DNA of 64,000 nt from Bacillota bacterium (GCA_036721855.1 DAIMKF010000004.1:17834-81833), one strand, 5' to 3'. Shown: positions 2,061-59,220, counted from the first letter of the stretch. The notes: a model not told the origin generated them from the sequence alone. Translations and numbers: made by a program.

Positions 2061-2079
2061 AAGTGATCCTCCTCTCGGT

Positions 2080-11384: not shown

Positions 11385-11714
11385 ATTAGCCTCCTCTAAT
11401 TTAGTAAAGATAATTACCTAGAGAAGTTGTATATTACCTTTATAACAAAAGATAACCAGCCTCAGAATGTTAATTACAGGAGTTTTTTAAGTTTAATAAA
11501 CCCAAATCGTATAATTTAAACATCGACTAGTCTGATTAGATTAATCTGTTATTTCCTTATTAACCTTGCTTTCCCTTTATTGTCTATTTTCGATAGCTTA
11601 TCTTTAACGATTAAAATGAGCCGCTGTCATTTATATTTAGTATAAATCCGTAAACTCTGCGTTTTTTATCGTAGTAAGTAACTTACAATTGCCGACTTAT
11701 ACAGGAAATAAATT

Positions 11715-11752
11715 ACCCCTTTAGTACTATTTTAATAGACTACTAAAGGGGT
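11715..11752. terminator. Terminator hairpin
   Basis: ACCCCTTTAGTA...TACTAAAGGGGT, a 12-bp stem. Confidence 0.6.
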
Positions 11753-11823
11753 GTTTGTATTTTTATCTATCTTTTGACTATCCCTACTAAAGTTTTGGGC
11801 AATAAGGTCAGGTATTATTTTCT

Positions 11824-15809: not shown

Positions 15810-16307
15810 TGAATAACCTCCATAATTAAAATTGGTAACTGTAAAAGGAATCTCTCCTTGGAAAAGACTTTCCTTTTGTTTCTCCACAACTAACCTCTGG
15901 GAAAATACTTTTTTTGGCAGCTGGGAAATAAATTACTGTTGGGTAGTAATCTGTTTATTAGTGCGAAGCTTAGATACCTCTCTGGTGGTCTATCCCTTAA
16001 GTTTTTAGTAAATTAGTTAGCTAGCTATAATTATTAGTGACTATTCCAACGAAAATACCCCTAACAATCATATACCATCTAAAAACCCTTGCTACTTTGG
16101 CATCTTTTTCATTTATACACCTCCCTCCTAATTTAACTGTTGATATATATAAAATTCCATTCTTATCTAGCTATACCTTTATAATAGCTATACTAAGTAT
16201 TTAGCCAAATAATCGGTCTCTTTGATCTTTATGCTTGATTTTAGCTAAACAAAAAGGAGCGAAAAAAGCTTGCGCGAAAGAAACTAATATAAGGGGTGAG
16301 CTGCTAT

Positions 16308-36223: not shown

Positions 36224-36237
36224 TTTTCAACCTCCTT

Positions 36238-37899
36238 TCAACTAACAATGTCGCTTTTTGTGCTAGCTACCTGGGTATTAACACCGTTTTGGCATTTCCC
36301 AACTAGACAAGCTTCATGCAAATGCATCTGAATTTCGTCTCTAAAATGCTCCATTATGGTAAAAAGAGGAACTGCCACCGATTGACCAAGAGCACATAAT
36401 GATGAACTTTGCATTACTTGGGCCAATTCCAGCGCTAAATCCAAATCTGCTTTAGTGGCCTTAAACTGACGTAGTTTATTAAAAATCTGTAGTACCCGGG
36501 TAGTACCTTCGCGACAGGGAGTGCACTGTCCGCAGGACTCATGGGCAAAAAAGTTCAGCATTGAACAGGCAATATCTACTATACAATGACTATCATCGAT
36601 AACCAGAAGCGCTCCTGATCCTAAAGCAGAACCAACCGATTGCAGGCTTTCGTAATCCATTGGTAGATCAAGATGAGCATCAGTCAGACAACCACCGGCT
36701 GTTCCTCCTGTTTGAGCCAGTTTAAATAACCTACCGTTAGGAATTCCCCCACCCACCCCATAGATTACTTTCCGTAAAGTAATGCCCATAGGAACTTCAA
36801 TCAAACCCTTGTTGTTAATATTGCCTGTTAGGGTAAAGACTTTGGTCCCCGGTGAACTAGTCGTTCCTATACTTCTATACCAAGCTGCACCATGCCTGAT
36901 AATAGCTGGGATATTGGCTATAGTCTCCACATTTACCACCACTGTAGGTTTCCCCCATAAGCCGGAAGTGCTAGGATAGGGTGGTTTTTGGCGTGCCTCT
37001 CCCCTTTTACCTTCCATCGAGGCAATAAGTGCGGTTTCTTCTCCACAAACATAGGAGCCGGCACCTTTTTTAACTTCAATATCAAATTCAAAATCCGTTC
37101 CGAACAGTTTTTTGCCCAGAATCCCTGAAGAACGTGCTTGGTTTATGGCCTTTTCCATTCGTTCAATAGAAAGATAGTATTCACCACGAATGTAAACATA
37201 ACCACAGGTAGCACCAACTGCGTAGCCTAAAATAATCATGCCCTCAATGATCTTATGGGGATCACCTTCTAGAATCAGTCTATCCTTAAAAGTACCCGGT
37301 TCACCCTCATCAGCATTACAGATGATATACTTTTGATCTGATTGCGTTTTTTGTGTCATGGCCAGTTTTTTACCGGTAGGGAAAGCTGCACCTCCACGTC
37401 CCCTAAGACCTGAGTCTTTAACAATTTCAATAACTTCTTCCGGAGAGTAACTAGTAAAAGCTGTTTCGGCAGCTTCGTAGCCATTGTGCTTAATATATTC
37501 TTCAATACTGTCTGGATTAATTAAGCCAGCATTTTCAAGCACAACACGTTTTTGAATTTGAAAATAATCCGGGCGTTTACTGTAATCAGCCGAGACCGAG
37601 GGCATCTCTCCTGTATATTGGAATCTTTTTACGGGGAAGCCTTTAATTAGATGTTCGCTGACAATTTCACGAGCTTTTTCTATGGTAACTTGGCTATATA
37701 CTATTCCTTCCGGATAAACCACAACAATCGGTCCCTGATCACATGGACCCAAACACCCTGTTTCGACAACACGTATCTCACGATCAAGCCCAGCTTTTTT
37801 AACCAGCTGTTCGATCTCTTTAAGTATGGCGTAGCACCCATGGGCCACACAAGGGGAGCCACCACATACCAGAACGTGTGAACGATAATAAAACCCCAT
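36238..37899 (-). CDS. hydB: NADH/FMN-binding hydrogenase beta subunit (NuoF-like), lacking the C-terminal 2x[4Fe-4S] domain
   Basis: GLRGRGGAAFPTG, NADEGEPGTFKDR, GAGSYVCGEE, ESCGQCTPCREG. The protein ends shortly after ACLVGKC. Confidence 0.92.
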   Translation of the reverse strand: MGFYYRSHVLVCGGSPCVAHGCYAILKEIEQLVKKAGLDREIRVVETGCLGPCDQGPIVVVYPEGIVYSQVTIEKAREIVSEHLIKGFPVKRFQYTGEMPSVSADYSKRPDYFQIQKRVVLENAGLINPDSIEEYIKHNGYEAAETAFTSYSPEEVIEIVKDSGLRGRGGAAFPTGKKLAMTQKTQSDQKYIICNADEGEPGTFKDRLILEGDPHKIIEGMIILGYAVGATCGYVYIRGEYYLSIERMEKAINQARSSGILGKKLFGTDFEFDIEVKKGAGSYVCGEETALIASMEGKRGEARQKPPYPSTSGLWGKPTVVVNVETIANIPAIIRHGAAWYRSIGTTSSPGTKVFTLTGNINNKGLIEVPMGITLRKVIYGVGGGIPNGRLFKLAQTGGTAGGCLTDAHLDLPMDYESLQSVGSALGSGALLVIDDSHCIVDIACSMLNFFAHESCGQCTPCREGTTRVLQIFNKLRQFKATKADLDLALELAQVMQSSSLCALGQSVAVPLFTIMEHFRDEIQMHLHEACLVGKCQNGVNTQVASTKSDIVS

Positions 37900-37919
37900 A
37901 GTAATCCCCTCCTTGAGGC

Positions 37920-38411
37920 CTATTTATAACGTTCTAAGATCTTGTTGAGATCTTCTGGAACTAAATTTCCATAGACCTCATCATCGATCATCATGGCTGG
38001 TGCAACCCCGCACACACCAAGACACGAACTTACTTCAACCGTAAAACGTCCGTCTTTTGTCGTGCCACCTATCTCGACGCCAAGGATATTACAAAGCGAG
38101 TCGATTATTTCCGTTTTGCCCATAACATGGCAAGGAGTCGACTCGCAGATTCTGATGATATGACGTCCCCTAGGTGTTGTTGAGAACATTGAATAGAATT
38201 TAGCTACTCCGTATACACGACTCTCTGGTATTTCTAGAACACGTGCTACTACACTTAATGCTTCACGAGGAAGGTAGTTTTTTAAGTCCTGCACTTCGTG
38301 AAGGGCTAGAACAATATCTTCTGGTTTACCACAATATTTAGTTGCAATTTCCTCTACCTGAGTTAGAAAATCAGCATCAGGTTGCAAGGTTATTTCAGAT
38401 TTTTCTGCCAT
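37920..38411 (-). CDS. hydC: Hydrogenase gamma subunit (NuoE-like, 2Fe-2S)
   Basis: VYGVAKFYSMFS, ICESTPCHVMG, SSCLGVCGVAP. Confidence 0.92.
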   Translation of the reverse strand: MAEKSEITLQPDADFLTQVEEIATKYCGKPEDIVLALHEVQDLKNYLPREALSVVARVLEIPESRVYGVAKFYSMFSTTPRGRHIIRICESTPCHVMGKTEIIDSLCNILGVEIGGTTKDGRFTVEVSSCLGVCGVAPAMMIDDEVYGNLVPEDLNKILERYK

Positions 38412-38462
38412 ATAGTGGACCTCCTTTCCTACCTAGAGTATATTTTGCTAGGTATTACTATT

Positions 38463-38480
38463 TTGTGATATTTTTAACAA
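38463..38480. promoter_or_regulatory. Putative Rex operator
   Basis: TTGTGATATTTTTAACAA, an 18-bp match to TTGT(G/T)AA-N4-TT(A/C)ACAA with one mismatch, 8 nt downstream of the -10 box. Confidence 0.7.
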
Positions 38481-38488
38481 TCCTTTCC

Positions 38489-38517
38489 AAAATAACTGGC
38501 CGTTAGGTAAATGTCAA
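38489..38517 (-). promoter_or_regulatory. Sigma-A promoter for hydCBA
   Basis: TTGACA-17 nt-TATTTT on the minus strand. Confidence 0.65.
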
Positions 38518-38524
38518 TCTGCTA

Positions 38525-38881
38525 CTAAGAGATGACAAGATTACCCACGACCTTGCCATTTACTACGTGGCTGGCAATAATCTGACGTGCTCTTTCCGGT
38601 GTTACATGGCCATAAATTACTTTTGGTTCACCTTGTCTTACTACTTCAATAATCGGTTCTAACTCACACATGCCAATACAACCTGTTTGTGTAACTACTA
38701 CATTACTGAGATTGCGGGCTTTGATCTCATCGTCAATTGCCTTAAGTGTTTCCCGGGCTCCTGCTCCTATACTGCATGTTCCCATACGGATAACAATGCC
38801 AACCTTGTCTTTTTCTTCTTTAGAATCTGTACTAGGCGATGAACACTCCTTAAACTTTTTAAGATTATCGAACAACTTCAT
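38525..38881 (-). CDS. Thioredoxin-like [2Fe-2S] ferredoxin (HndB/HydD-like subunit)
   Basis: IRMGTCSIGAGAR, QTGCIGMCELEP, IYGHVTPERARQIIASHV. ATG 38881 follows AAGGGGG. Confidence 0.85.
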   Translation of the reverse strand: MKLFDNLKKFKECSSPSTDSKEEKDKVGIVIRMGTCSIGAGARETLKAIDDEIKARNLSNVVVTQTGCIGMCELEPIIEVVRQGEPKVIYGHVTPERARQIIASHVVNGKVVGNLVIS

Positions 38882-39619
38882 ATTTAAGCAACCCCCCTTA
38901 AGAAATATTAACTTTCTACTATACATTAGAAAGATTACATAACTAAAAGCAGTATCTTCTAGTAATATTTTTCGTTAAGGATAATCTTTAGCTTAAATAT
39001 CTGACATATTTAGTCTGCTTAATCTGTTTTTTGCCTTTTTATATGTATAACAGTATTCGCATCAATAGAATAGTAGCCACTTAACTACTTTCAGTCATTT
39101 GCGCCTTTATTTAAATCTATGTTTTGGCCGACAATAACCTTTCTTTAATTATATCTTATATATGCCTTTAAGGAAAATATTCCTTCTTTTTAGGACAAAA
39201 TTAATTTATTAGCAGTTATCCCGGAGTTTAGTTGCGTTTTTGTTCCCTCGCCTTAACCCACACCTCAGCAATGAAATATCTTCTATTAGACTTTACCTAT
39301 CCTCCAGCTTTTTCTCGAGTTATTACTTATTACCTTATGCTTGATTCATAAGATACTTTCATCATATGAGTTATAAATCACCCATAAAGACCAGATTTAC
39401 GGGAATTTGTTTCCGGCTAAGATTTTTGAATTAAATAAATGCGGAAGCCAAGTTTTTCCTCCCCCCTAGGAGTTTTGGGTTTTTTAAAGTTATAGTTTAT
39501 AACCTAAATTTTTAATATGGGTATATCCTGACTATAAAGAAGCCCCAAAAAAACCTTATGTTTTTTGAGCCATGGTTAACAGTAAGTTATTTAATTTCAG
39601 AGGTATTTAATTTCAGGGG

Positions 39620-43944: not shown

Positions 43945-45063
43945 TTGAAAAAAAAGCGTGGTCTCGATACTGCTTGCCAAAAGAAACCGAGCCAAGGATT
44001 ATTTATGATTTTAGTCATAATCCTAGGGGTATTATTGGGCTTTTTTTCGAGTCACTTTTTCGAAATTAATTATGATCACTTGCTTATTTTCCTGCTTGTA
44101 GTCTATCTAACCTTTTTTGTGCAAATAATTATACATGAATTAGGCCACTTTGTGGTCGGGAAAATCCTTGGCTACCGGTTTATCTTTTTACGTCTTGGTC
44201 CGGTGGCCATTGAAATCAAAAACAACAAACTAAGGCTTGTAATAAAGAGAAATAAAGGCTATGGCGGGGCCTGTGGCATGCTTCCGCCCAACGAAGGTAT
44301 CCCTCTAAAACGGCAACTCTGGTTTTACGCAGGGGGAAGCATCTTTAATATTCTGACTCTAATCCCCCTTTTTGGCATCATCTTTAGTCACTCTTCTGGA
44401 CTTGTTTTCACTATTAGTATCACGGCAATATTATGTACAACAATCATAGTACTTTTGAATCTTTGGCCTGTCTCTAGTGGCAACCACCCTAATGATGGTA
44501 GAATAATTTTCGGGATTCTGGCCAATTCACCTTTAGCAGCCGATTTAGTTCAAGAAACCAATCTTTCAGCAGCTCTGGCAAGCGGGAAGCGTCCCTCTGA
44601 ACTTATGATTGAACCTCTTGATGAAAAGAGATTAACTATCATTGATTCCGCCATAACCCTAACTCTACTTAATATCCATTATTTTAAAGCTCTAGATACA
44701 GATAATTTTCAATCTCTAGCCCGATATATATACGTTTTTGAAAATAACTTAGCGAACAGTCTCAGCTTCGTTGCTGTACCCATGAACTATGAGTTAATCT
44801 ACTATTACTCGGCCATTGATCATAATAAAGAGCAGGCAGAAAAATATTACACCAGGATTGATACTCATCTTGTTGCCGATAGGGATATTAACGGCCGTCG
44901 AGTTTTAGCAGCTTATGAATTCTATATCAATGACAACCCTAAAAAAGCCAGGCAATATTGCCTCGAAGGTCTGGCTTCTTTTAATAATTTTCCCCTAAAA
45001 GGTCAAGCTATAATGGAAAAAGCGTTGCTAACTAAATTAATATCCGAGATAGATAATAGTTAA
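43945..45063 (+). CDS. M50-family (site-2 protease-like) metallopeptidase
   Basis: IHELGH, AGGSIFN, NLWP....NDG. N-terminal TM helices. Confidence 0.8.
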   Translation: MKKKRGLDTACQKKPSQGLFMILVIILGVLLGFFSSHFFEINYDHLLIFLLVVYLTFFVQIIIHELGHFVVGKILGYRFIFLRLGPVAIEIKNNKLRLVIKRNKGYGGACGMLPPNEGIPLKRQLWFYAGGSIFNILTLIPLFGIIFSHSSGLVFTISITAILCTTIIVLLNLWPVSSGNHPNDGRIIFGILANSPLAADLVQETNLSAALASGKRPSELMIEPLDEKRLTIIDSAITLTLLNIHYFKALDTDNFQSLARYIYVFENNLANSLSFVAVPMNYELIYYYSAIDHNKEQAEKYYTRIDTHLVADRDINGRRVLAAYEFYINDNPKKARQYCLEGLASFNNFPLKGQAIMEKALLTKLISEIDNS

Positions 45064-45211
45064 CTCTCCTTAACCGGTAAAAAAATCAAAAATCATACCT
45101 TACAGTCCTCGAAAACGCCTGAGTGGTTAATGAACCGTTCAGGCGTTTTGCGATAATAAAGAGTTGTTTCTATTTTAAATATTCTCTTTACTTGATAGCT
45201 GTCTTAGATAT

Positions 45212-47350
45212 TTAACTTACTTCAGCAATCTTGCTCGTTTTGCGCTGAGCCATGACCAATCTGTAATATATCCCCTTTTTCTGCAAAAGCTCCATATGGG
45301 TTCCTACTTCTGCTATTTTACCTTGATCCAGAACAATAAGGCGATCAGCGCTTCTGAGGGTCGATAACCGGTGAGCAATAGCTATGGTGGTACGGCCTTG
45401 GACAATTCGGTTTAGGCTATCTTGGATAATGGATTCGGTCTCAACATCCAGCGAGCTGGTCGCCTCGTCTAGTATCAGTATGGAAGGGTTTTTAATAATA
45501 GCTCTGGCTATAGCCAGCCTCTGCCTTTCACCACCGGATATGGAGTAGCCATTCTCTCCGATTATTGTATTATACCCATCGGCAGTTTGCATAATGAAAT
45601 CATGGGCGTTAGCAGCTTTTGCCGCTGCAATCACCTCAACAGCTGTAGCCCCAGGTTTTCCATAAGCAATATTTTCATAAAACGATCCGGCAAAAAGGAA
45701 TGTATCCTGAAAGACCACACCTATCTTTTCATGGAGATATTCAGGAGACATATCTTTGAGATCTACTCCATTGATGCTGATTTTGCCCTGAGTTGGATCA
45801 TAAAGACGCATGATTAGGTTGATTATTGTTGATTTTCCCGCTCCTGAGCGCCCAACTATACCAATCATCTCACCTGATTGGATATCCAAATCTATACCCT
45901 TAAGCACAGGTTCATAGGACTTATAGCCAAAGGAAACACCTTCGAAAGACACCTTTCCCAATAAAGGCACGTTTTTAGGATTCGATATAGAAATGATATC
46001 AGGTTCTTCATCCAGTATTTCAAATATCTTGACCATGCTGGTCATGGCATCTGCCAGCCAGCGGGGGAAAGAGACCAGCCAGCGAAGTGGTGCGTAAACA
46101 TAGGTAATGTACATGGTAAACTGGACAAGAACGCCAAGACTTAAAGTGTTATTCAAGATTTTTTGCCCGCCATAATACAGTACCAGAAATTCGCCAATTC
46201 CCGTAAAGAATAACATTAACGGAAAAAGACGAGCCCAAATAGCTTCATTGTCCGATGATACTTGAGCCAGCTCACGGGTGGCTTTTGAGAACTTTTGAAT
46301 TTCCAACTCTTCTTTTCCAAAGGACTTGACGGTACGGATTCCTTTGATTATATCATGGAGAATGGACTGACATTTGGAGTTTTTTCTCCATTGCCGTTCA
46401 TAACGGATATGAATGAATCTCCAAAAACGCGACAAAACAATGCATACCACAGGCACGGGAATAAATACTAGGAGAGTAAGCTCTAAGTTGGTAAAAAGCA
46501 GGATAACCAAGACGACCACAAATATTATCATCTGCTCGACAGCCCAACGGCCGCCATCGGAAATAAAGTTCCGCACATTGCCGGTATCCTCCATCACACG
46601 CCGGATCAAATCCCCTGGTGTACGTTTGGATAGCGAACTCATAGACAGCTTTTGAATCTTCTCGTAAGCCAGATTTCTCAAATGGTTAGCATACTGGATA
46701 CTGGCCTCATTGAATACCCTTGAGCTGAAGATAAAAATCAACTCTCCAAGGGCTCTTGCCAGAAACATCGCCCCTGCTAGCAGGAAAACCTGGGCAGAGG
46801 TTCCTTTCATTGGGCGCAGATATTCATCTATAAGCAGCCGGCTAAAAAGCGGTACAAGAAGGTATATTATTGACGATGTAGCTAAAAACAACTCTGCAGG
46901 CAAAATCTTACCAGCAAAGGGCCTGAGTAAATCCAAAGCCCGTTTTAAAACACTTATCTTGTTATAGCAAAACAAACAGACCGACATTCCCTCAATAAGG
47001 GGACGGCCACATTTTTCGCACACGGGTTGTTCTTTTTCTTCAGGGGTGACATATTGCTTTGTTTGGATATAAAAATTGATCACTTTGCAGAATTCGCCTG
47101 CTGCCTTCATAGCCGAGAATGTAAAGCGACAGAGAAGTATTTCACTCTCATTATTCATTTTTGCAAAAAGAAGACCGCAACCCACCCCTCCTATTACCGA
47201 CATCTCGGTAATATCGCCTGCAGACAATGTCAAAAGTATTTTATCGCCGATAAAGGAGATGATCTGTCCGGTTTGGTCAAAGCTAACTATGCCTTTTGCT
47301 GGCTGCATAGCCAGGTCAAGATCATAGTGGAATTCATGTTTGTGCGACAT
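45212..47350 (-). CDS. ABC exporter (TMD-NBD) with N-terminal extension and zinc ribbon
   Basis: CEKCGRPLIEGMSVCLFC before the TMD. GRSGAGKST, ISGGERQR, ILDEATSSLD, IAHR. Confidence 0.92.
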   Translation of the reverse strand: MSHKHEFHYDLDLAMQPAKGIVSFDQTGQIISFIGDKILLTLSAGDITEMSVIGGVGCGLLFAKMNNESEILLCRFTFSAMKAAGEFCKVINFYIQTKQYVTPEEKEQPVCEKCGRPLIEGMSVCLFCYNKISVLKRALDLLRPFAGKILPAELFLATSSIIYLLVPLFSRLLIDEYLRPMKGTSAQVFLLAGAMFLARALGELIFIFSSRVFNEASIQYANHLRNLAYEKIQKLSMSSLSKRTPGDLIRRVMEDTGNVRNFISDGGRWAVEQMIIFVVVLVILLFTNLELTLLVFIPVPVVCIVLSRFWRFIHIRYERQWRKNSKCQSILHDIIKGIRTVKSFGKEELEIQKFSKATRELAQVSSDNEAIWARLFPLMLFFTGIGEFLVLYYGGQKILNNTLSLGVLVQFTMYITYVYAPLRWLVSFPRWLADAMTSMVKIFEILDEEPDIISISNPKNVPLLGKVSFEGVSFGYKSYEPVLKGIDLDIQSGEMIGIVGRSGAGKSTIINLIMRLYDPTQGKISINGVDLKDMSPEYLHEKIGVVFQDTFLFAGSFYENIAYGKPGATAVEVIAAAKAANAHDFIMQTADGYNTIIGENGYSISGGERQRLAIARAIIKNPSILILDEATSSLDVETESIIQDSLNRIVQGRTTIAIAHRLSTLRSADRLIVLDQGKIAEVGTHMELLQKKGIYYRLVMAQRKTSKIAEVS

Positions 47351-47377
47351 GGAGTCACTTCCTTCTGAATAGTCTGC

Positions 47378-47923
47378 CTAAAAAAGGTATGGTTCGAGCC
47401 TCTTGAAACTCTTTTTATCAAGCCTGCTCAAGGATTGAATGATATAACGGTTTCCGTCCACATCAGTTATTATAAGCCTATCATCGTCCAGCATCCTGAT
47501 GTTTTTATTAACGTCTTTCAAAGCACAGTTTTTCTTATATTTGGAATCATCACGGCCAATTATAAGCTCCATGTATACATAACCTAGTTTGTCTTTCACC
47601 GATTTTACTTCATATACAGTGGGACTGTAATAGCGTTTTTCAAGTTCAGTTAATACGATACTATACTGCTTCTCATTGAGATCGGAAAGAGAACGGATCA
47701 TCCCGATTTCTTTGTTATCCTTATCTGCCACCGAAATATACTCCGTAGGATTCCCAATAGGGAAGGCTCGCCTTAATGTTATCCGGTTATAATCTTGATC
47801 TGCGTATTTTAAACCTGTAAATCCACCCGATGTCATATAGAATTCAGCATTTTCAAGATCAATCATGCCAATATCTATTGCATAAGCCCATGAAAGCGCT
47901 TCTTTCTGTATGGCTTTTTCCAT
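47378..47923 (-). CDS. DUF1854-family protein
   Basis: LRRAFPIGNPTEYISV...EIGMIRSL...ELEKRYYSP...ITDVDGNRYII..LSRLDKKSFKRLE. Confidence 0.8.
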   Translation of the reverse strand: MEKAIQKEALSWAYAIDIGMIDLENAEFYMTSGGFTGLKYADQDYNRITLRRAFPIGNPTEYISVADKDNKEIGMIRSLSDLNEKQYSIVLTELEKRYYSPTVYEVKSVKDKLGYVYMELIIGRDDSKYKKNCALKDVNKNIRMLDDDRLIITDVDGNRYIIQSLSRLDKKSFKRLEPYLF

Positions 47924-47970
47924 GGAAATTCCTCCTAAATTATCCTGCATAGTATAGATACTCTAATATA

Positions 47971-50232
47971 TCAGGCATCCATGTTTATAACCTTAAGCCC
48001 CTCTAGCTGTATGGTATAAAGCTTGTGATATTCGCCTTTTTTTTGCATCAGTTCTTTATGGGTACCGCTTTCTACCACCTTGCCATTGCTGATAACAGCC
48101 AGACTGTCTGCATCGCGCAGTGTAGAAAGCCTATGAGCGATGGCTATGGTTGTTCGGTCTCTTTGTAGATCAGAAAGAGCTTTTTGGATGCTTGCTTCGG
48201 TCTCAGTATCCATAGCTGCAGTGGCTTCATCCAATATTAAAATATCAGGATTCTGCAAAATCGTACGTGCTATAGACAAACGCTGTTTCTCTCCGCCTGA
48301 CAGATCCTGTCCTCCCGCTCCTACTTTAGTCTCGTAGGCATCCGGAAGAGCCATTATGAATTCATGGGCTGAAGCTGCCTTGGCTGCTTTTATGACATCC
48401 TCAATACTTGCCTTTGGCCTTGCATAGCGAATATTATCGGCGATTGTGCCGATAAAAAGGTAAATATCCTGTGATACAATTCCTATGCTTTGCCGCAGCT
48501 GAGTCAAAGATAGCTGCTTTACATTGACACCATCAATAGTGATAGAACCTTCATCAACGTCATAAAGCCGTGCAATTAAGTTTGCCATCGTGGATTTACC
48601 TGCGCCGGTCTTACCGACGATGCCTAGCATCTGCCCAGCTTTTACAGACAAATCTAGTCCTTTCAAGACAGGTGTTGCAGGATCATATTCAAACTTCACA
48701 CCCTTTAGTTCAATGTTACCCCGGATTCGATCAAGTATGACAGGCTCCTCAGGTTCAGTAATATCAGGTTTGGCATCAATAATTTCAAAGACCCTCTGAG
48801 CTGAATCTACACAGCGTGCCCACCAGTTTGAAACCCAGGACATGAACTCAAGGGGCCCATATAGCATAGAGAGATAGGCGATAAAGGTAAGCAGAGTACC
48901 CAGGGTGATTTCGCCTTCGAGAACCATCTTTCCGCCTATGCCGGTTATGATTACCTGACCTAAAAACATAAACAGATAGATAAGCGGAAAAGCCGTAGCA
49001 CTGGTGTTCATGGCCTGTATATCCACAACAGCTTGCTTGGCACCCACCTCGGCAAAACGCTTTGCTTCAGCATCTTCTCTGGCAAAAGCCTTGATAACGC
49101 GCTGACCGTTCACAGAGTCACTGAGCATGGAATTGAGCTGGGAATTGTATACCCAATTCTTATGGTGGAAGTGGCGGAAAACACTCCATAGAATCCTGAA
49201 AAAGATGATTGCTATCGGTAGTACCAGAAGACATATTAAAGCAAGTTTGATATTAAGCGCACACATCAGGATTATTACACCTGTAAAGGTAAAAACATTG
49301 ACAATTACATATGGCAGGCCGTCAACAAAAAACCAATAGATATTGTTGGCATCCTGATTGATCCGGTTCATTAAGCTTCCAGTGCGTTTAGATGTATAAA
49401 ACCCTACAGATAACCGCTGCATAGCTTCAAAGATTTTAAGCTTCAAATCCTGCACAATCCAGGGAACAGTTTTAGCCAGAACATAAGAATAGAAGATATT
49501 CAGGGCCACACCGATGGCTCTGACGATAAAGATCAGACATACAGCCTGCAAAATAGCGCCGTAGTAGCTACCACCCTCTATAAGTACTTCATCGAAAAAA
49601 AACTTGGTGCCAATTAGGGGTGATATCATAGAGAACACTGATCCTGCAAGCATAGCAAGGAATATAACAGCCACCTTGCTCCGATAATGGACAAAAAAGC
49701 CCATCAGCCGCCGGGTAATCGAGACTTTATCCATACATTTCGGGCATAGCTTACGTTCAGGTTCCGGGTATCTTGTGCCACATTTGGGGCAAAAGAGTTC
49801 CTCATCAATGAGAATATCACCAAGAGGCTTTTTACCTTCACGAATATTTTGGATTACTTTTATGAGCCGCTCAATATCGGACAAAAATCCGATTGAGAAA
49901 ACTAGCAATATACTTGTTTTGTCTTCTTTTCCGCTGCAAAGACGCGCTGTGGACAACAGACGTTCACATGTCAGTTCACCTAGCTCTGGCAGAGGATAAA
50001 TCTCAAGTTCCTTAGCTTCGTACACAGCAACTATCCTGCGGGCACCGGTAGTTTTGACCACCTTTTCCTCTCCGAAGAGAATGTACATGTTTTCACTACT
50101 GACAGCCATATAAACATCGGAATACCAATCTTTATCAGCTGAATCAGTATGAGTTGCGTAAATTAATTCGGAGGTATCAATACCTTCTGCAGCAAAAGCG
50201 GAGAGCATATACTCCGGCATGTGTGTTTCCAT
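47971..50232 (-). CDS. ABC exporter (TMD-NBD) with N-terminal extension and zinc ribbon
   Basis: CPKCGTRYPEPERKLCPKC before the TMD. GKTGAGKST, LSGGEKQR, ILDEATAAMD, IAHR. Confidence 0.92.
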   Translation of the reverse strand: METHMPEYMLSAFAAEGIDTSELIYATHTDSADKDWYSDVYMAVSSENMYILFGEEKVVKTTGARRIVAVYEAKELEIYPLPELGELTCERLLSTARLCSGKEDKTSILLVFSIGFLSDIERLIKVIQNIREGKKPLGDILIDEELFCPKCGTRYPEPERKLCPKCMDKVSITRRLMGFFVHYRSKVAVIFLAMLAGSVFSMISPLIGTKFFFDEVLIEGGSYYGAILQAVCLIFIVRAIGVALNIFYSYVLAKTVPWIVQDLKLKIFEAMQRLSVGFYTSKRTGSLMNRINQDANNIYWFFVDGLPYVIVNVFTFTGVIILMCALNIKLALICLLVLPIAIIFFRILWSVFRHFHHKNWVYNSQLNSMLSDSVNGQRVIKAFAREDAEAKRFAEVGAKQAVVDIQAMNTSATAFPLIYLFMFLGQVIITGIGGKMVLEGEITLGTLLTFIAYLSMLYGPLEFMSWVSNWWARCVDSAQRVFEIIDAKPDITEPEEPVILDRIRGNIELKGVKFEYDPATPVLKGLDLSVKAGQMLGIVGKTGAGKSTMANLIARLYDVDEGSITIDGVNVKQLSLTQLRQSIGIVSQDIYLFIGTIADNIRYARPKASIEDVIKAAKAASAHEFIMALPDAYETKVGAGGQDLSGGEKQRLSIARTILQNPDILILDEATAAMDTETEASIQKALSDLQRDRTTIAIAHRLSTLRDADSLAVISNGKVVESGTHKELMQKKGEYHKLYTIQLEGLKVINMDA

Positions 50233-50908
50233 TTATATTTCCTCCCCAAATCGAATACCAAAACAGTACTACGGAAACATCCTCACAAAATAATAGGTAT
50301 CGGATGTCGCTAAAATCTACACCAAGAAAGAACCTACAAGAGTTTTATATTAAAACATTTTTGTAGCTTCAGCAAAAATGACATTATCTATCGCTCATGT
50401 TCGCTTTTTATCAGCTACTACCTCCTACGCCCAGATAATTATTTATGATAAAACAATTCACATGTTTTCTCAACATATATAAATAATTTCCTTCCGTATC
50501 TATTTAAGCATTTAGCAGCAGAAATAAAAAGGTAAGACTTATTTCATACCCAATTTTTCTAAACTTTCGCTTTAACACACTTACCTGTTGCTTAAATTTT
50601 TTCTCCTCTTGTTTTATCCGGAGTACCTTACCACTGTATGAGTAAACTTAAGAGTTAATCCCTGTTTTTAGGTCTGTATATTTTTGTTACCTAAAAAACA
50701 ACGGTTATGAATCTCTGTTACTTCTCATTTATGGTTGCTCCAAATCATTTTGAGTTCGCCATGCTTAACACACTACACTTATCCTTGGCTAACACTACTA
50801 TTTTTATATTTTTTAGACCATAATTGTTGCTGACTAAATTACTGTCAAAACAGAAAAAAGGTTACCCCTCACTAATTAATGTAATTATTATTAGACTATA
50901 GCTAATAT

Positions 50909-50942
50909 AAAAAAGTCTGGTATTAAACCTACCAGACTTTTT
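50909..50942. terminator. Terminator ending the met operon/DUF4153 transcript
   Basis: AAAAAAGTCTGGTA...TACCAGACTTTTT. Confidence 0.75.
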
Positions 50943-50989
50943 AATTCTAAATACTGTGGTTTCAAGTTTTTAATAGCTTAGAATAGTCT

Positions 50990-52963: not shown

Positions 52964-55336
52964 TTAGTTTTTCTTAAAAAACTCCCTGGCGATCTTGACT
53001 GCTTCTCTGGCATCCCTTCCGTAATAATCAGCCCCGATTAGGTCCGCGTATTCTTTATTAAGAACGGCTCCGCCTACCATAACTTTGCAATTTAAGCCCT
53101 CTTTCTTGATAGCGGCAATGGTTTTTTCCATATTCTTTACTGTTGTAGTCATTAAGGCACTTAAACCTAAAAGCGGGATCCTTTCTTCTTTAACTGTTTT
53201 TAAGATAACTTGTTGAGAAACATCCCTACCTAGATCGATAACTTTAAAACCATAGTTTTCCAGTAAGAGTTTGACCATATTCTTCCCGATATCGTGAATA
53301 TCACCTTCAACAGTTGCCAAGACAATCTTTCCTTTGTTTAGATCAAGGCTTTTTTCTTTGTCTTTTAAACTATGGGTTTTAATAACCTCAAAAGCTACTT
53401 TTGTGGTTTCAGCTGCCTGGATCAGGTGAGGTAGGTAAAGCTCCCCTTTTTCATATTTTAGACCAACTTCATCTAAAGCCGGTATTATATATTGGTCAAT
53501 TACCTCCAGGGGGGTTAACTTTTTAAGCAGTTTTTGGGTTACCGCAGGTGCGGCAGCTTTTAATCCACACCCAATAACTTTTTTAAGATCTTCTTCTATT
53601 ATTTGGGCTTTCGGGTCTTGTTTTTTTACATTGCTATATCTAGTCAGAAAGTTTGTGGCTGTAACATCAAAGGCCAATAAAAGGTTACATGCATCAAAGG
53701 TTTTTATCATCTCTGCATCTAGTGGATCAATTATGGCTGCGTTAAGACCCGCACCTAAGGCCAAAGCTAAAAAGGTCTTGTTAAGCAAAGTTCTATTTGG
53801 TAGCCCAAAAGAAACGTTACTGATTCCAAGGACAGTTTTTACACCTAGCTCTTTTTTGATTAATCTTATGGCTTTAAGTGTTTCTAGAATCTGGTTTTGT
53901 TCTGTTGAGGCTGTAAGCACCAAACAGTCTATAATTAAATCTTCTTTGTCTATACCATATTGAGCGGCTTTTTTTACTATCCTCTTAGCAATCTCAAGTC
54001 TTTTTTCAGCTGTAGGAGGGATACCTTTTTCATCTAGGGTTAAACATACCGCGCACGCACCATATTTTTTAACCAGGGGAAACAGCTCTGCCATTACTTC
54101 TTCTTTCCCGTTGACAGAGTTAATAAGTGGTTTGCCGTTATAAACTCTTACCGCAGCTTCAAGGACATCTCTATTCATACTATCAATTGACAGAGGAAGA
54201 TCGATTATGCCTTGCAGCTGTTTAATAACCTCTAACATGGTCGTAACTTCATCGATTTCAGGTAGGCCAACATTTACATCAAGCAGATCGACCCCAGCTT
54301 CCTTTTGCCTGATAGCTTCTTGTAAAAGCGCAGTATAATCTTTCTGTTTTAGCGCTTCTTGAAGGTATCTTTTGCCTGTAGGATTTAGCCTCTCGCCGAT
54401 AACTGCCGGTTTTTCACCGATAATAACTGTTTTTGTGGCTGAACTAACCGCCGTTAGTTTTTGTATTTGGCGTTTTAACGGCTTAACTGTTTTTAATTCG
54501 TTTTTTAGAGTTTGAATATACTTAGGATTAGTTCCGCAACATCCTCCGATAAACGACACACCTTTTTGGACCATTAGCTTGGCGAAACTCGCAAATTCCT
54601 CTGGTCCTATCTCAAAGACAGTCTCTCCCTGGCTCTCTTTAGGCAGTCCCGCATTAGGTCTTGCGATTACAGGCACTTTTGCATATTTAACTATCTCTTC
54701 CAGCAGAGGTAGCGTTTCTTTGGGGCCTAAAGAGCAATTGATACCTAGGGCTTTAACCCCTAACCCTGAAATGGTATTAACCATAGTAAGAGGATCAGTC
54801 CCCATTAGAGTTTTTCCGTCGGCTTGAAAAGTCATGGTGGCAAATACCGGGAGATTACTGTTTTCGGTAGCTGCCAGAACGGCCACCTTAAGTTCATAAA
54901 GATCGGTCATGGTCTCAATTAAAATTAAATCTGCCCCGGCTTCAGTTCCCAAGATTACCTGCTCTTTAAATAAAAGATAGGCCTCATTAAAAGATAGCGT
55001 CCCATAGGGCTGTATGAACTGGCCGAGAGGACCGATATCTAAAGCCACCAGTATATCTTTGGCGGCTTGACGGGCTATTTTTACACCTAAAGGTACAATT
55101 TCTTTGACACTCAAACCATATTGGCTGAGTTTAAGAGAATTCGCACCAAAAGTGTTGGTGGTAATGATATCTGCCCCAGCTTGAATATACTCGCCATGGA
55201 TTTGGGCGATTAGTTCTTGGCTTGAAATATTGTAACTTTCCGGCGGTTGCCCGGTTTTAAGGCCATAACTTTGCAGTAAAGTGCCCATTGCTCCATCAAA
55301 AAGCAGAATGTTCTCATAATCGATTTTCCTTTTCAC
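52964..55336 (-). CDS. metH: Cobalamin-dependent methionine synthase (Hcy-binding, pterin-binding, cap and B12 domains; no activation domain)
   Basis: FDGAMGT, GINCS, IGGCCGT, IGERLNPTG, EGDIHDIGKN. The GTG start overlaps the upstream stop (GTGA). Confidence 0.92.
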   Translation of the reverse strand: MKRKIDYENILLFDGAMGTLLQSYGLKTGQPPESYNISSQELIAQIHGEYIQAGADIITTNTFGANSLKLSQYGLSVKEIVPLGVKIARQAAKDILVALDIGPLGQFIQPYGTLSFNEAYLLFKEQVILGTEAGADLILIETMTDLYELKVAVLAATENSNLPVFATMTFQADGKTLMGTDPLTMVNTISGLGVKALGINCSLGPKETLPLLEEIVKYAKVPVIARPNAGLPKESQGETVFEIGPEEFASFAKLMVQKGVSFIGGCCGTNPKYIQTLKNELKTVKPLKRQIQKLTAVSSATKTVIIGEKPAVIGERLNPTGKRYLQEALKQKDYTALLQEAIRQKEAGVDLLDVNVGLPEIDEVTTMLEVIKQLQGIIDLPLSIDSMNRDVLEAAVRVYNGKPLINSVNGKEEVMAELFPLVKKYGACAVCLTLDEKGIPPTAEKRLEIAKRIVKKAAQYGIDKEDLIIDCLVLTASTEQNQILETLKAIRLIKKELGVKTVLGISNVSFGLPNRTLLNKTFLALALGAGLNAAIIDPLDAEMIKTFDACNLLLAFDVTATNFLTRYSNVKKQDPKAQIIEEDLKKVIGCGLKAAAPAVTQKLLKKLTPLEVIDQYIIPALDEVGLKYEKGELYLPHLIQAAETTKVAFEVIKTHSLKDKEKSLDLNKGKIVLATVEGDIHDIGKNMVKLLLENYGFKVIDLGRDVSQQVILKTVKEERIPLLGLSALMTTTVKNMEKTIAAIKKEGLNCKVMVGGAVLNKEYADLIGADYYGRDAREAVKIAREFFKKN

Positions 55337-55995
55337 TCTTGTGGCTCCCTTCTCAACCGACAATTAACCATCTTACAGTCTGAGCATCTTTTATTGGTTG
55401 GAGCATTAACTGACGGAGTTTTAGTTAGACCTATTATGGCTGTGATTGATTTTCTGGGGATCATAAGAGAGCTTTTTGTAACCGTAAGGCCTATTTTACT
55501 GTAAGCGTTTAAAAGATTAAGCAGCTGCTGTTGCGCTTCCAAAGGGAAATCACCATAACCGGGGCTATACCTTTTAGTAAGAAAAAACCCATTTTCAGAG
55601 GCGAAAACGCCAATAAGATCGCAAACCTCATCACCATATGCTTCAATGGCTGTTGAGGCCGTGGCATCCATTACCATTGCTTTTAAGAGATCTGACTGTG
55701 CATAATAGTCAATTTTTTTATCAACTTCACTGCCGAGGGTAACCGCCATTACCGCACAATAAGAAGAGTCTCGGAGGTGATTTTGAAGATCGCGACTTTT
55801 AAAAGACAAGAAGCTTTCCTGTAGTTTGATCTGATCAGCTTCGCTTTCTATCCTGTAAATTTCATAAACATTTTTTGGACGGACAAGGTTAAATATTTCA
55901 CTGCTGCATGCTTCGATTAAATTTCTAATATCTGCTTCTATTTTTAATCCCCGATAACCTAAATAACGCAAAACTTCGTTCTGATTAATCTTCAT
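55333..55995 (-). CDS. Stand-alone B12-dependent methionine synthase activation domain
   Basis: AVTLGSEVD, MDATASTAIE, RYSPGYGDFPL, MIPRKSITAIIG. Confidence 0.88.
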   Translation of the reverse strand: MKINQNEVLRYLGYRGLKIEADIRNLIEACSSEIFNLVRPKNVYEIYRIESEADQIKLQESFLSFKSRDLQNHLRDSSYCAVMAVTLGSEVDKKIDYYAQSDLLKAMVMDATASTAIEAYGDEVCDLIGVFASENGFFLTKRYSPGYGDFPLEAQQQLLNLLNAYSKIGLTVTKSSLMIPRKSITAIIGLTKTPSVNAPTNKRCSDCKMVNCRLRREPQE

Positions 55996-56872
55996 GGATA
56001 AAACTTCCTCTAATATTTTTAATGTTGGCATATACTTTTGCGGCAACTTTAGGGCTATTCATAGTATAGAGGTGAATGCCGTCTACACCGCTGGCTAATA
56101 GATCAACTATCTGCTCGGAGGCATATATTATACCTGCTTCTTTTAATGCTTCAGGTTTATTTTCATAAACCGAAAGAAGCCTTTTTAATTTCGGTGGGAG
56201 GCTAGCACCACAAAGCTCTGTAATTAGTTCAATCTGCTTTTTATTTACCACCGGCATAATTCCAGCTGATACCGGGCAGTCGATTCCTAGGGCCGCTAAT
56301 TTTTCCTGGAAGTTATAAAATAAGTTATTATCAAAAAACATCTGGGTAATTAGAAAATCAACACCACAGTTAACTTTTTCTTTTAAGTATTGCAGATCGT
56401 CTTCTAGACTTATACAGTCAATATGACCTTCCGGGTAACAAGCAGCTGCTAGGTAAAATCCCTCTAAAGATTTAATATGGGTGATTAAATCTTTGGCATA
56501 TTCATAATCTGCCTTAACTTGAATCATCCTATCGAAATCTTGAGGTGTATCGCCTCTTAAGGCCAGAATATTTTTTATATTCTTAGAACGCAGTTCGGCT
56601 AATAAAGCCTCGATTTCGTCTCTGGTACTACCTATACAAGATAAATGAGCTAGTGTTTCAATTCCATACCTGTTTTTAATGATATCGGCTATCTCAACAG
56701 TTAGTTCCCTGCTGCTGCCGCCTGCTCCGTAAGTTACACTGATAAAATCAGGACAAAGATCAATTACGGCTTCAATTATAGCCAGTACACTTTTTAAGGA
56801 CATATTCCCCTTTGGTGGAAATATCTCTAAGGACATCACCGGTCTTTTACCGAACATCTTTTTAATCTCCAT
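55985..56872 (-). CDS. metF: 5,10-methylenetetrahydrofolate reductase
   Basis: SLEIFPPK, ISVTYGAGGS, LAHLSC, LALRGD, ACYPEGH, ITQMFFD, IHLYTMN. Confidence 0.93.
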   Translation of the reverse strand: MEIKKMFGKRPVMSLEIFPPKGNMSLKSVLAIIEAVIDLCPDFISVTYGAGGSSRELTVEIADIIKNRYGIETLAHLSCIGSTRDEIEALLAELRSKNIKNILALRGDTPQDFDRMIQVKADYEYAKDLITHIKSLEGFYLAAACYPEGHIDCISLEDDLQYLKEKVNCGVDFLITQMFFDNNLFYNFQEKLAALGIDCPVSAGIMPVVNKKQIELITELCGASLPPKLKRLLSVYENKPEALKEAGIIYASEQIVDLLASGVDGIHLYTMNSPKVAAKVYANIKNIRGSFIHED

Positions 56873-57633: not shown

Positions 57634-57858
57634 TCAACTGGATTTACTTATTACTACTTCAGTTCTACTCAGGGAGTTACATACCTTTATAACTCTTAAC
57701 GGACAAGCTCTTAGACATAAACCACAGCCAGTGCATTTGTTTTTATCGAATACCAGACTCCAAAAGACTGTTTCCATAAACAAAGCCTGTGATTTACAAA
57801 CTGCTGTGCATGCACCACAGTCAACACAATTTTTTCTTTCAATTTGAATTTCACTCAT
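57634..57858 (-). CDS. 2x[4Fe-4S] ferredoxin (MA1822-like, without NIL domain)
   Basis: CVDCGACTAVC and CTGCGLCLRACP. The start overlaps the upstream stop. Confidence 0.8.
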   Translation of the reverse strand: MSEIQIERKNCVDCGACTAVCKSQALFMETVFWSLVFDKNKCTGCGLCLRACPLRVIKVCNSLSRTEVVISKSS

Positions 57859-59020
57859 TGCTTAACCCCTCTTTGAGTAGATTTAAACTATTAACTTCAG
57901 CAAAAGCTGTGATCGGCTCTTGTAAAGTTAGTTTTCCTTTTTCAACCCACTTCTTTAACTCCAGCGCAATCTCTCTGGCTTTTTTAAGACTTGATAAAGG
58001 TGCTGTTTTGATTGTTTTACCTTGTAGTGTTACTTGCCCGCTCCTTAATTGGGTATAACTTACTCTACCTAAGCTGGGTTTTTTGCAGCTTTGAACACTA
58101 AAATCCAGGACATCGGTATAGATATCCTTATTTTCAACAATTAGATTTTGAAGCATCTCTTCGTCAAGTACTGGAATGGGTATACCTATGCCCACAAACA
58201 TGGAAGTGCCGTATTTTTCAAAGACGGCTGGTTTGATGTACCTCTCTTGCATCTGTTTCAAATCCCCAATTACAGCCAGAGAAGCAGCCGCCGAAAGAGG
58301 AACCCCGTTTTGGGAGCGTATTTTACCTGTAGTAAATTGTGTTCCTTGCCAAGCGATATAGCCGATGGCACCGGCTAAAAATATTCTCGTCCCGACTCCA
58401 AGTGTCCGAAGATACGGATCGTTAAGCAAAGGGCTTAATTGTCCTGAAGTTGAGTAGTTAATATTAGCCATGTTGGGCTCTAAAACACCCATATAGGTAT
58501 AGAGGGTTCTCGTTAAGGTGTTGGTCGCTGCGGGGTAATTTTGATAACAGTTTCTGGGATTAAATAAATAAGCTTCGTTTATGGTATCTTTGGTTATATA
58601 AGCAGCTATTTTTTTTCGAGGATAACAATCAGTCCCAGAAGAAGCAGCTTCTAAATATACCTTTTTACCGGCTATAAGATCACAGATAACATGGGCTCCG
58701 CCATATTCAATACCTTGATCTTTGGAAGGTTCTGTAGCACCGATATAGGCATCTACGGCCGCAAGTCCGGCATAAGCCTTGACCTTGTTTAGAGATATTT
58801 TTGTCATTCTAATCGGCGGCTCAGAGTGACCAAAGTTTAAAAAGGCTCCCGAAGAACACATCGGTCCAAATGTAGCTGTGGTAACTACATCAACATACTT
58901 AGCTGTTTCTTTTAGACCTTTTTCCTTGTAAATATCAATTATTTCCTCAGCTGTAGCAACTACCACTTCGCCATTTTTTATCTTTTGGTTTATCTCAGCA
59001 AAGGTTTTTCTTACCGACAT
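57851..59020 (-). CDS. Homocysteine biosynthesis protein (DUF39, L-aspartate semialdehyde sulfurtransferase, MA1821-like)
   Basis: RKTFAEINQKIK, VDVVTTATFGPMCSSGAFLNFGH, GTDCYPR, LFNPRNCYQNY, SPLLNDP. ATG 59020 follows AAGGGGG. Confidence 0.9.
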   Translation of the reverse strand: MSVRKTFAEINQKIKNGEVVVATAEEIIDIYKEKGLKETAKYVDVVTTATFGPMCSSGAFLNFGHSEPPIRMTKISLNKVKAYAGLAAVDAYIGATEPSKDQGIEYGGAHVICDLIAGKKVYLEAASSGTDCYPRKKIAAYITKDTINEAYLFNPRNCYQNYPAATNTLTRTLYTYMGVLEPNMANINYSTSGQLSPLLNDPYLRTLGVGTRIFLAGAIGYIAWQGTQFTTGKIRSQNGVPLSAAASLAVIGDLKQMQERYIKPAVFEKYGTSMFVGIGIPIPVLDEEMLQNLIVENKDIYTDVLDFSVQSCKKPSLGRVSYTQLRSGQVTLQGKTIKTAPLSSLKKAREIALELKKWVEKGKLTLQEPITAFAEVNSLNLLKEGLSNE

Positions 59021-59042
59021 CAAAACTACCCCCTTATTTTTA

Positions 59043-59084
59043 AAATAGAAAAGCTGCTTTTCCGATAAGAAAAGCAGCTTTTTC
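59043..59084 (-). terminator. Riboswitch expression-platform terminator
   Basis: GAAAAAGCTGCTTTTC-TTATC-GGAAAAGCAGCTTTTC plus TATTTT. The 5' arm and loop (CTTATC) can pair with the aptamer's GATAAG to form the antiterminator. Confidence 0.85.
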
Positions 59085-59109
59085 ATTTTAACTAAAAAAA
59101 TGGCTGTTT

Positions 59110-59220
59110 GTCTTATCTTTCAGAATGATAAATCATCCTGCAGGAATTAACACCGCTGCATTTATAATGCCGGTTGTCGAGCTTCATAGGGCCAGTCCCT
59201 CAGCTACTCTTGATAAGAAA
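59110..59220 (-). ncRNA. SAM-I (S-box) riboswitch aptamer
   Basis: TTCTTATCAAGAGTAGCTGAGGGACTGGCCCTATGAAGCTCGACAACC...CGGTGTTAATTCCTGCAG...CTGAAAGATAAGA, canonical. Confidence 0.96.

Follow-up and report, generated by a model that had tools for sequence, protein, structure and literature searches.

The DUF1854 family (Pfam PF08909) and the ATP-binding cassette (ABC) transporter that accompanies it were previously known from automatic names and from their cofitness with cphA/cphA' in two Betaproteobacteria, Acidovorax and Cupriavidus (Price et al., bioRxiv 10.1101/072470). NCBIfam holds two corresponding equivalog families, the cyanophycin metabolism-associated ABC transporter (NF052233; cut-off 880 bits) and the cyanophycin metabolism-associated DUF1854 protein (NF052234; cut-off 150 bits). 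Here, a related set of three genes is described from a 64,000-nucleotide stretch of DNA from a Bacillota bacterium (GCA_036721855.1, DAIMKF010000004.1:17834-81833; hereafter the window, with positions counted from its first nucleotide), in which a DUF1854 gene lies between the genes for two ABC half-transporters, ABC1 and ABC2. Judged on its sequences, the trio is a heterodimeric variant of a known exporter family and a distant relative of the Betaproteobacterial cphA-linked pump. The odds are slightly better than even that the three proteins constitute one dedicated heterodimeric ABC exporter, in which PH-like domains at the N-termini of both halves, together with DUF1854, recruit or gate a cytoplasmic cargo.

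The cphA-linked arrangement can be seen on the Ralstonia wenshanensis megaplasmid p56D2, where two cphA genes are divergent from a single ABC gene (768 aa), followed by a DUF1854 gene (156 aa; the pair is KOL96_03340 and KOL96_03345). This locus and the published cofitness bear out a statement in an earlier, model-generated account of the window (the sequence-only reading) that DUF1854 and such ABC proteins are annotated beside cyanophycin synthetase in some Proteobacteria. The Ralstonia ABC protein aligns with both window ABC proteins over ~650-720 aa, at 36% identity to ABC1 and 33% to ABC2, the latter over 720 aa with Ralstonia residue 37 aligned to ABC2 residue 7; its N-domain is as in ABC2, and its CPTC...CPQC ribbon aligns with the CEKC...CLFC of ABC2. 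The Ralstonia DUF1854 protein is ~26% identical to its window counterpart and aligns over both halves. NF052233 is the best family for ABC1 (541.5 bits) and ABC2 (503.3 bits), though neither is an equivalog, and NF052234 is the best NCBIfam match for the DUF1854 protein (71.4 bits, likewise below its cut-off). The two systems have the same ABC architecture (N-domain, CxxC...CxxC, transmembrane domain and canonical nucleotide-binding domain) and a two-halved DUF1854, encoded immediately downstream. They differ in that the Betaproteobacterial system has one ABC gene, presumably forming a homodimer, where the window has two ancient paralogues flanking DUF1854; in that it adjoins two cyanophycin synthetase genes, with none linked in the Clostridial loci described below; and in the extra N-terminal AIDIGxLD segment of the Clostridial DUF1854.

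Adjacent paralogous half-transporters with the same exporter fold of six transmembrane helices (6-TM) and a nucleotide-binding domain are also known from BmrCD, LmrCD, TM287/288 and EfrCD of the Firmicutes and Thermotoga. In these exporters one ATP site is degenerate, whereas ABC1 and ABC2 have two canonical sites, and they are not known to carry an N-terminal PH-like domain, a zinc ribbon or an accessory subunit. Extra cytosolic domains are found on other exporters, including the C39-like domain of HlyB, the C39 peptidase of PCAT1 and the C-terminal carbohydrate-binding domain of Wzt. The likeness to these, in that the added domain could recruit a peptide or polymeric cargo to the exporter core, is one of functional analogy only; their extra domains are papain-like or jelly-roll, whereas the N-domain of ABC1 and ABC2 is PH-like.

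Half-transporters, N-terminal domains and DUF1854

ABC1 and ABC2 are half-transporters of the ABC B-family (type IV fold), with a PF00664 6-TM transmembrane domain (TMD) followed by a nucleotide-binding domain (NBD) in one polypeptide, the latter matched by Pfam ABC_tran (PF00005) at E 2e-33 in ABC1 (residues 523-672) and E 6e-36 in ABC2. The Walker A lysine, Q-loop glutamine, signature SGG, Walker B aspartate-glutamate pair and H-loop histidine are intact in both, and these motifs are essentially invariant across 53 ABC1 and 48 ABC2 orthologues, with one G-to-A exception. The absence of a degenerate ATP site of the kind found in asymmetric heterodimeric exporters (BmrCD or TM287-288 type), which the sequence-only reading had picked out from the intact Walker A/B, signature and H-loop motifs, therefore extends to the orthologues, where both sites are canonical. 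From the zinc ribbon onward, the only part in which BLAST finds similarity, the two proteins are 37% identical. Defence-system models of PADLOC gave only generic partial matches to the NBDs (mad3, mad8) and no match to DUF1854.

The N-terminal domains of ABC1 and ABC2 matched no Pfam family, and no N-terminal Peptidase_C39 match was present in either at E up to 10. A sequence profile of the N-domain compared with all Protein Data Bank (PDB) chains returned nothing significant, only chance zinc-finger matches. ABC2 residues 1-142 were modelled with AlphaFold2 (AF2) from an alignment of 42 homologues; the model has a mean pLDDT of 86.5, exceeding 90 across residues 10-100, and consists of seven strands (4-11, 17-25, 29-34, 37-43, 47-54, 59-65 and 70-76) and a helix (78-97). 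Foldseek searches of the PDB with this model returned PH, PTB or FERM-F3 domains for almost all of the top 50 matches (probability 0.96-1.0, E 3e-3 to 3e-2; TM-score to target up to 0.58), among them SSRP1-N, the CCM2 PTB, ORP11, AKT, Sin1, the GRK2 PH, the JAK2 FERM-F3 and the Rtt106 tandem PH. Domains such as the SSRP1 N-terminal domain (5umr), CCM2 PTB (4wj7) and Rtt106 tandem PH (3tvv) have the same 7-stranded beta sandwich and closing C-terminal helix, but they are only 7-20% identical to the ABC2 N-domain, with no sequence similarity, and belong to eukaryotic signalling and chaperone contexts. As the E-values are only 3e-3 to 3e-2 and the call depends on the consistency of the hits, the model assigns the ABC2 N-domain to the PH-like superfold at the level of the fold, with homology to known PH domains not proven. 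The sequence-only reading had called these domains uncharacterised, which stands insofar as no Pfam family covers them and falls insofar as they have a recognisable PH-like fold that is common to the proteobacterial relatives.

Alignment of the ABC1 and ABC2 N-domain profiles with hhalign (probability 95.6%, E 1e-8, 95 columns) shows homology between the two. Among 1.84 billion representative proteins, only 146 clusters were matched by a profile combining N-domain and ribbon, near the N-terminus in all except a few zinc-ribbon-only matches. The full-length matches are ABC proteins of 708-816 aa with NF052233 as their best family, under its cut-off, and a protein search with the 142-aa N-terminus alone returned only eight fragments. 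One protein from the profile search (P0282, 750 aa) carries a PH-like N-domain, ABC_membrane, S4 and pseudouridine-synthase domains and no NBD; it is most likely a chimera of assembly or gene calling.

The four-cysteine motifs noted in the sequence-only reading just before the TMD are at those positions, 20-25 residues ahead of it (the TMD begins at residue 189 in ABC1 and 154 in ABC2), and are conserved in orthologues. The four cysteines of each protein are kept at ≥90% in the alignments of the 53 ABC1 and 48 ABC2 orthologues, those of ABC2 are invariant in its alignments A2 and A3, and CxxC...CxxC occurs in 25/25 full-length distant relatives. Pfam DZR and Zn_ribbon match the ribbon regions weakly, below threshold, and in the ABC2 model the second CxxC knuckle opens a helix (126-141) heading to TM1. 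In the model, this C4 site has the look of a structural zinc ribbon by which the PH-like domain is tied to the elbow helix. The ABC2 PH-like domain has three extra cysteines, C58 (GVGCG), C74 (CRF) and C88 (EFCK), within 47085-47179, which are nearly invariant in close ABC2 orthologues; C58 and C74 are kept in distant clades, C88 is lost there, and ABC1 is without equivalents of any of the three.

The DUF1854 protein matches PF08909 over profile positions 1-128 of 130 (114.4 bits against a gathering threshold of 26.8; E 4e-33), and a sequence search of all PDB chains returned nothing significant beyond chance zinc-finger matches. Its AF2 model (pLDDT 83, pTM 0.59) has two beta-rich halves, 26-97 and 102-179, each with six strands and a terminal helix. 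An internal duplication was considered and rejected, the hhalign match between the halves (E 0.004 over 30 columns) being insufficient to claim one. The conserved N-terminal segment AIDIGxLD (residues ~9-21; window 47860-47900) has a pLDDT of 39-63, is absent from the Ralstonia DUF1854 and corresponds in a natural fusion protein to the linker behind the NBD, and is a candidate docking motif. In that fusion, WP_066712443.1 (972 aa) from Clostridium sp. Marseille-P299, an ABC1-type protein continues into DUF1854, in the order PH-like domain, zinc ribbon, TMD, NBD, DUF1854. As Rosetta-stone evidence, the fusion indicates that DUF1854 physically partners the transporter at the cytosolic NBD end of ABC1.

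Conservation and distribution of the trio

A scan of the GTDB species representatives with the DUF1854 alignment gave 57 loci, and exact-protein look-ups gave six more (63 in total). All of the 57 loci are from metagenome-assembled genomes (MAGs) of Clostridia, including Oscillospiraceae, Acutalibacteraceae, Defluviitaleaceae, Saccharofermentanales and others, with DUF1854 identities to the window protein from 94% down to 34%. The order ABC1-type, DUF1854, ABC2-type on one strand is found in ~50 of the 57; the others are truncated by contig ends or have inserted genes while the trio stays linked. In related loci the upstream gene invariably matches ABC1 better than ABC2, and the downstream gene ABC2 better than ABC1, so that the ABC duplication predates these Clostridia lineages. 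All-against-all clustering of the flanking open reading frames (ORFs) of related loci found no other family common to several clades; the purine-biosynthesis, YdjC and MntP genes that recur beside the trio in Acutalibacteraceae reflect ordinary synteny. The trio is self-contained, as the sequence-only reading had suggested: its three genes keep together across Clostridia, and nothing else around them is conserved between clades. Neither of the two outcomes that would have refuted that reading was seen, since synteny holds and the N-terminal domains did not match any family that is characterised and has a known substrate.

The trio is interrupted by small genes, though still linked, in four MAG loci of the termite-gut type (L021, L026, L033 and L062). 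Their insertions comprise at least five GNAT acetyltransferase genes, none related to another, that lie between DUF1854 and one or the other ABC gene; those of L033 also include a flavin reductase and a PemK-like ORF. The inserted GNAT genes could hint at an acetylated amine cargo, or could merely hitch-hike.

The impression in the sequence-only reading that the block is GC-richer than its flanks was accurate for the ABC genes, with a GC content of 0.43-0.44 against 0.387 for the window (gene mean, 0.39) and third-position GC contents (GC3; 0.423 and 0.440) that are the two highest of the 41 window ORFs (mean, 0.343; sd, 0.035). It was not accurate for the DUF1854 gene (GC 0.375, GC3 0.382), and the ABC genes are equalled in total GC by the genes of a HydABC-type [FeFe] hydrogenase cluster (34499-38926, minus strand; large subunit, Nuo51-like and thioredoxin-like 2Fe-2S subunits), in that case via codon positions 1 and 2 and not GC3. 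The case for the horizontal acquisition raised in the same reading is weak: the GC3 of the ABC genes is raised, but the trio and the flanks on either side are collinear with those of the closest relative (L007), at 91% nucleotide identity. A recent insertion is ruled out by this, and any transfer must be old.

A possible dedicated exporter and its alternatives

In the proposed machine, ABC1 and ABC2, as ancient paralogues, would pair to form a B-family (type IV fold) exporter with two competent ATP sites. A structural C4 zinc ribbon would fix the PH-like domain of each half to the elbow helix before TM1, and these domains would thus be held at the cytoplasmic face, beside the substrate entrance and the NBDs. 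DUF1854, a soluble third subunit, would dock on this cytosolic platform; the PH-like domains and DUF1854 would recruit or gate a polar cargo made in the cytoplasm, and ATP hydrolysis at both sites would drive the cargo outward. The cargo is probably peptidic or an amino-acid-derived polymer, judging solely from homology with the Betaproteobacterial cphA-linked system. There is also a bolder and rather improbable version, in which a loading chamber, built in the cytosol from the PH-like domains and DUF1854, feeds an amino-acid polymer or oligomer made independently of ribosomes (cyanophycin-like or another polyamide) outward through the two-site ABC motor. If true, this would be an unrecognised route of polymer secretion in many gut and digester Clostridia and, in a single-ABC form, in Betaproteobacteria.

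What the sequences show directly is the domain architecture, the paralogy, the invariant motifs, the synteny, the fusion and the homology to the cphA-linked pair, whereas pairing into a heterodimer, docking of DUF1854, recruitment or gating, export and the kind of cargo are inferred. Several points weigh against the trio being a dedicated, cargo-recruiting exporter. Some exporter-fold ABC proteins import, so that the outward direction is an assumption. The Foldseek E-values of the N-domain are all 3e-3 or weaker, none reaching 1e-3. For the whole DUF1854 model, Foldseek found no significant structural neighbour in the PDB (best E 0.02, to LolA, with a TM-score of ~0.19), and hhalign gave no signal between the ABC N-domains and either DUF1854 half, which makes the part of DUF1854 as an accessory subunit a proposal. 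All three window proteins score under the NCBIfam equivalog cut-offs, tblastn with both Ralstonia CphA proteins found no cphA in the window or in the 63 Clostridia loci (1.09 Mb in total), and no other biosynthetic gene was linked to the Clostridia trio. With no cphA or biosynthetic gene linked, the idea of a peptide or polymer as cargo is extrapolated from relatives that share 25-36% identity.

These last results also bear on whether the trio is a true cyanophycin-related exporter, the Clostridial counterpart of the Betaproteobacterial one, that moves a cyanophycin-like polyamide or beta-Asp-Arg made by a cphA elsewhere in the genome. For all three proteins the top NCBIfam family is NF052233 or NF052234, the full-length architecture is common to the Ralstonia cphA-adjacent pair, and the relatives are cofit with cphA in Betaproteobacteria (Price et al., bioRxiv 10.1101/072470). 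On the other side, the scores are far under the cut-offs (541 and 503 against 880 bits, 71 against 150 bits), the CphA searches had no match in the window or the 63 loci, identity to the proteobacterial proteins is low (25-36%) and the duplicated ABC gene suggests an altered specificity. Many Clostridia encode cphA, which counts in its favour, and on balance this explanation is unlikely. A similarly low probability is given to a general multidrug or lipid heterodimeric exporter of the Firmicutes (BmrCD, LmrCD, YheIH or an MsbA-like flippase) in which the PH-like domains and DUF1854 are merely regulatory. MsbA and related models are next-best in NCBIfam (400-436 bits), lipid binding is frequent among PH-like folds, the GNAT insertions in the four termite-gut-type loci could reflect a context of detoxification, and neighbouring genes for paralogous half-transporters in Firmicutes frequently encode drug exporters; in drug-type heterodimers, however, one ATP site is usually degenerate, and the orthologues of ABC1 and ABC2 keep both canonical. 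The neighbour survey also found no drug-pump-type regulator linked to the trio, and the strict co-inheritance of DUF1854 and the special N-domains, with the polymer-synthetase link in relatives, favours a specific cargo.

The metal- or redox-gated export put forward in the sequence-only reading, with CxxC...CxxC as the sensor, found no support and is very improbable. Each subunit does have four conserved cysteines, and ABC2 has the nearly invariant C58, C74 and C88 in addition; yet the cysteine spacing, the weak DZR and Zn_ribbon matches, the position between a globular domain and the elbow helix and the helix-capping knuckle fit a structural ribbon, the extra cysteines are absent from ABC1 (with C88 lost in distant clades), and the trio has no linked gene related to metals or redox. 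Just as little probability attaches to an importer with an exporter fold, as in IrtAB, YbtPQ or Rv1819c; its cytosolic domains would receive or process an imported compound. Both sites of the IrtAB heterodimer are canonical and one of its subunits has an N-terminal cytosolic domain, and the lack of a biosynthetic partner gene linked to the trio would agree with import, but neither the PH-like domain nor DUF1854 has an enzymatic signature, and the genetic tie of the relatives to a cytoplasmic polymer synthetase suggests outward transport. Each of these four alternatives lacks specific support.

Operon layout, surroundings and meaning for the family

The three genes are co-oriented on the minus strand between a 757-bp gap and a hairpin, and look like one operon, with a Shine-Dalgarno sequence for each gene (Table 1). 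Pfam and the ORF coordinates place the DUF1854 gene between the two ABC genes, as first read. The longest DUF1854 ORF spans 47378-47950 (minus strand), but the true start is set at 47923 because GGAGG lies 7 nt ahead of the ATG there and homologues are mostly 181 aa. With this start, the stop-to-ATG spacing is 47 nt between ABC1 and DUF1854 and 27 nt between DUF1854 and ABC2; a 20-nt spacing between ABC1 and DUF1854 holds for the longest DUF1854 ORF only. The hairpin, missed by a pattern scan because of its 16-nt loop, lies between ABC2 and a convergent gene for a Peptidase_M50-like membrane protein (weak match; 43945-45063, plus strand) and is likely a bidirectional terminator marking the operon end. 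The M50-like gene adjoins the trio in the 91%-identical relative L007 only and not in other clades.

Upstream of ABC1, an Rfam search found no match and no recognisable regulatory RNA (leader RNA or riboswitch), the folding of 50233-50440 was nothing unusual (z-score, 0.25), promoter-like hexamers (50473-50445 and 50848-50820) occurred no more often than chance would give, and no credible small ORF or precursor peptide was found. In line with the absence of cphA, a C39 protease and a peptide precursor stated in the sequence-only reading, no cphA and no C39 domain was found in the window, nor was a precursor peptide or a type I secretion system partner gene.

Table 1. Coordinates of the trio, its domains and adjoining elements in the window, and of insertions within the trio at related loci.
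Feature	Position	Strand	Description
ABC1 gene	47971-50232	-	ORF, 753 aa; half-transporter with PH-like N-domain, predicted C4 zinc ribbon, 6-TM type IV exporter TMD and canonical NBD
ABC1 N-terminal cytosolic domain	49804-50232	-	~aa 1-143; PH-like via homology to the ABC2 N-domain; conserved in 53 orthologues
ABC1 predicted zinc ribbon	49723-49797	-	C148-P-K-C151, C163-P-K-C166 (CPKC...CPKC)
ABC1 transmembrane domain	48850-49668	-	Pfam PF00664, E 1.5e-41, residues 189-461
ABC1 nucleotide-binding domain	48001-48666	-	K546, Q588, S645-G-G, D668-E669, H700 intact
DUF1854 gene	47378-47923	-	181 aa, cytosolic; proposed accessory subunit; start from ribosome-binding site and homologue length
ABC2 gene	45212-47350	-	ORF, 712 aa; half-transporter with ABC1-like architecture, paralogue of ABC1
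ABC2 N-terminal PH-like domain	47051-47350	-	aa 1-100; 7 strands and C-terminal helix (AF2 and Foldseek)
ABC2 predicted zinc ribbon	46958-47029	-	C111-E-K-C114, C125-L-F-C128 (CEKC...CLFC)
ABC2 transmembrane domain	46085-46891	-	Pfam PF00664, E 1.5e-39; starts at residue 154
ABC2 nucleotide-binding domain	45245-45904	-	K506, Q548, S605-G-G, D628-E629, H660 intact
Terminator-like hairpin	45112-45149	.	AAAACGCCTGA / TCAGGCGTTTT; 11-bp perfect stem, 16-nt loop; read off the sequence
Upstream intergenic region of ABC1	50233-50989	-	757 bp, non-coding; presumed promoter and 5' untranslated region
Insertions in the trio (related loci)	L021:9209-9982; L026:9720-10235; L033:7898-8371, 11144-12271; L062:333-803, 1640-2062		

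Elsewhere in the window, a SAM (S-adenosylmethionine) riboswitch (RF00162, 90 bits; 59110-59219, minus strand) lies upstream of a homocysteine-biosynthesis (HcyBio) gene (57851-59086) and near MetH-like and MTHFR genes (52964-56872). A UvrD-like helicase is split in two adjacent ORFs (15216-15887 and 13383-15206, minus strand), the larger with an embedded RNase_T exonuclease domain; a frameshift, a pseudogene or a gene that is truly in two parts could each account for this. A family-2 glycosyltransferase resembling BcsA, with PilZ as its C-terminal domain (22948-24921, minus strand), is likely a cyclic di-GMP-controlled exopolysaccharide synthase, and its gene is adjoined by that of a 1159-aa metallophosphoesterase-domain protein (18972-22451).

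A literature search on DUF1854/PF08909, zinc-ribbon ABC exporters and cphA-linked transporters found only the study of Price et al. The PH-like assignment of the N-domain, the combination of PH-like domain, zinc ribbon and DUF1854 as a family-wide module and the widespread heterodimeric form of the Clostridia, unlinked to cphA, appear to be new, and a PH-like N-terminal domain on a bacterial ABC exporter appears to be undescribed in the literature searched, which makes it of interest to the structural biology of transporters. The family gains a defined anatomy, comprising a PH-like domain, a predicted zinc ribbon, an exporter core and a two-halved DUF1854 subunit that is backed by a natural fusion. 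Its heterodimeric form occurs in at least 57 species of Clostridia, carried by gut and digester lineages that include human-gut Acutalibacteraceae and Oscillospiraceae, and is not linked to cphA. The cargo of the pump, and whether the label "cyanophycin-associated" transfers outside the Proteobacteria, have become testable.

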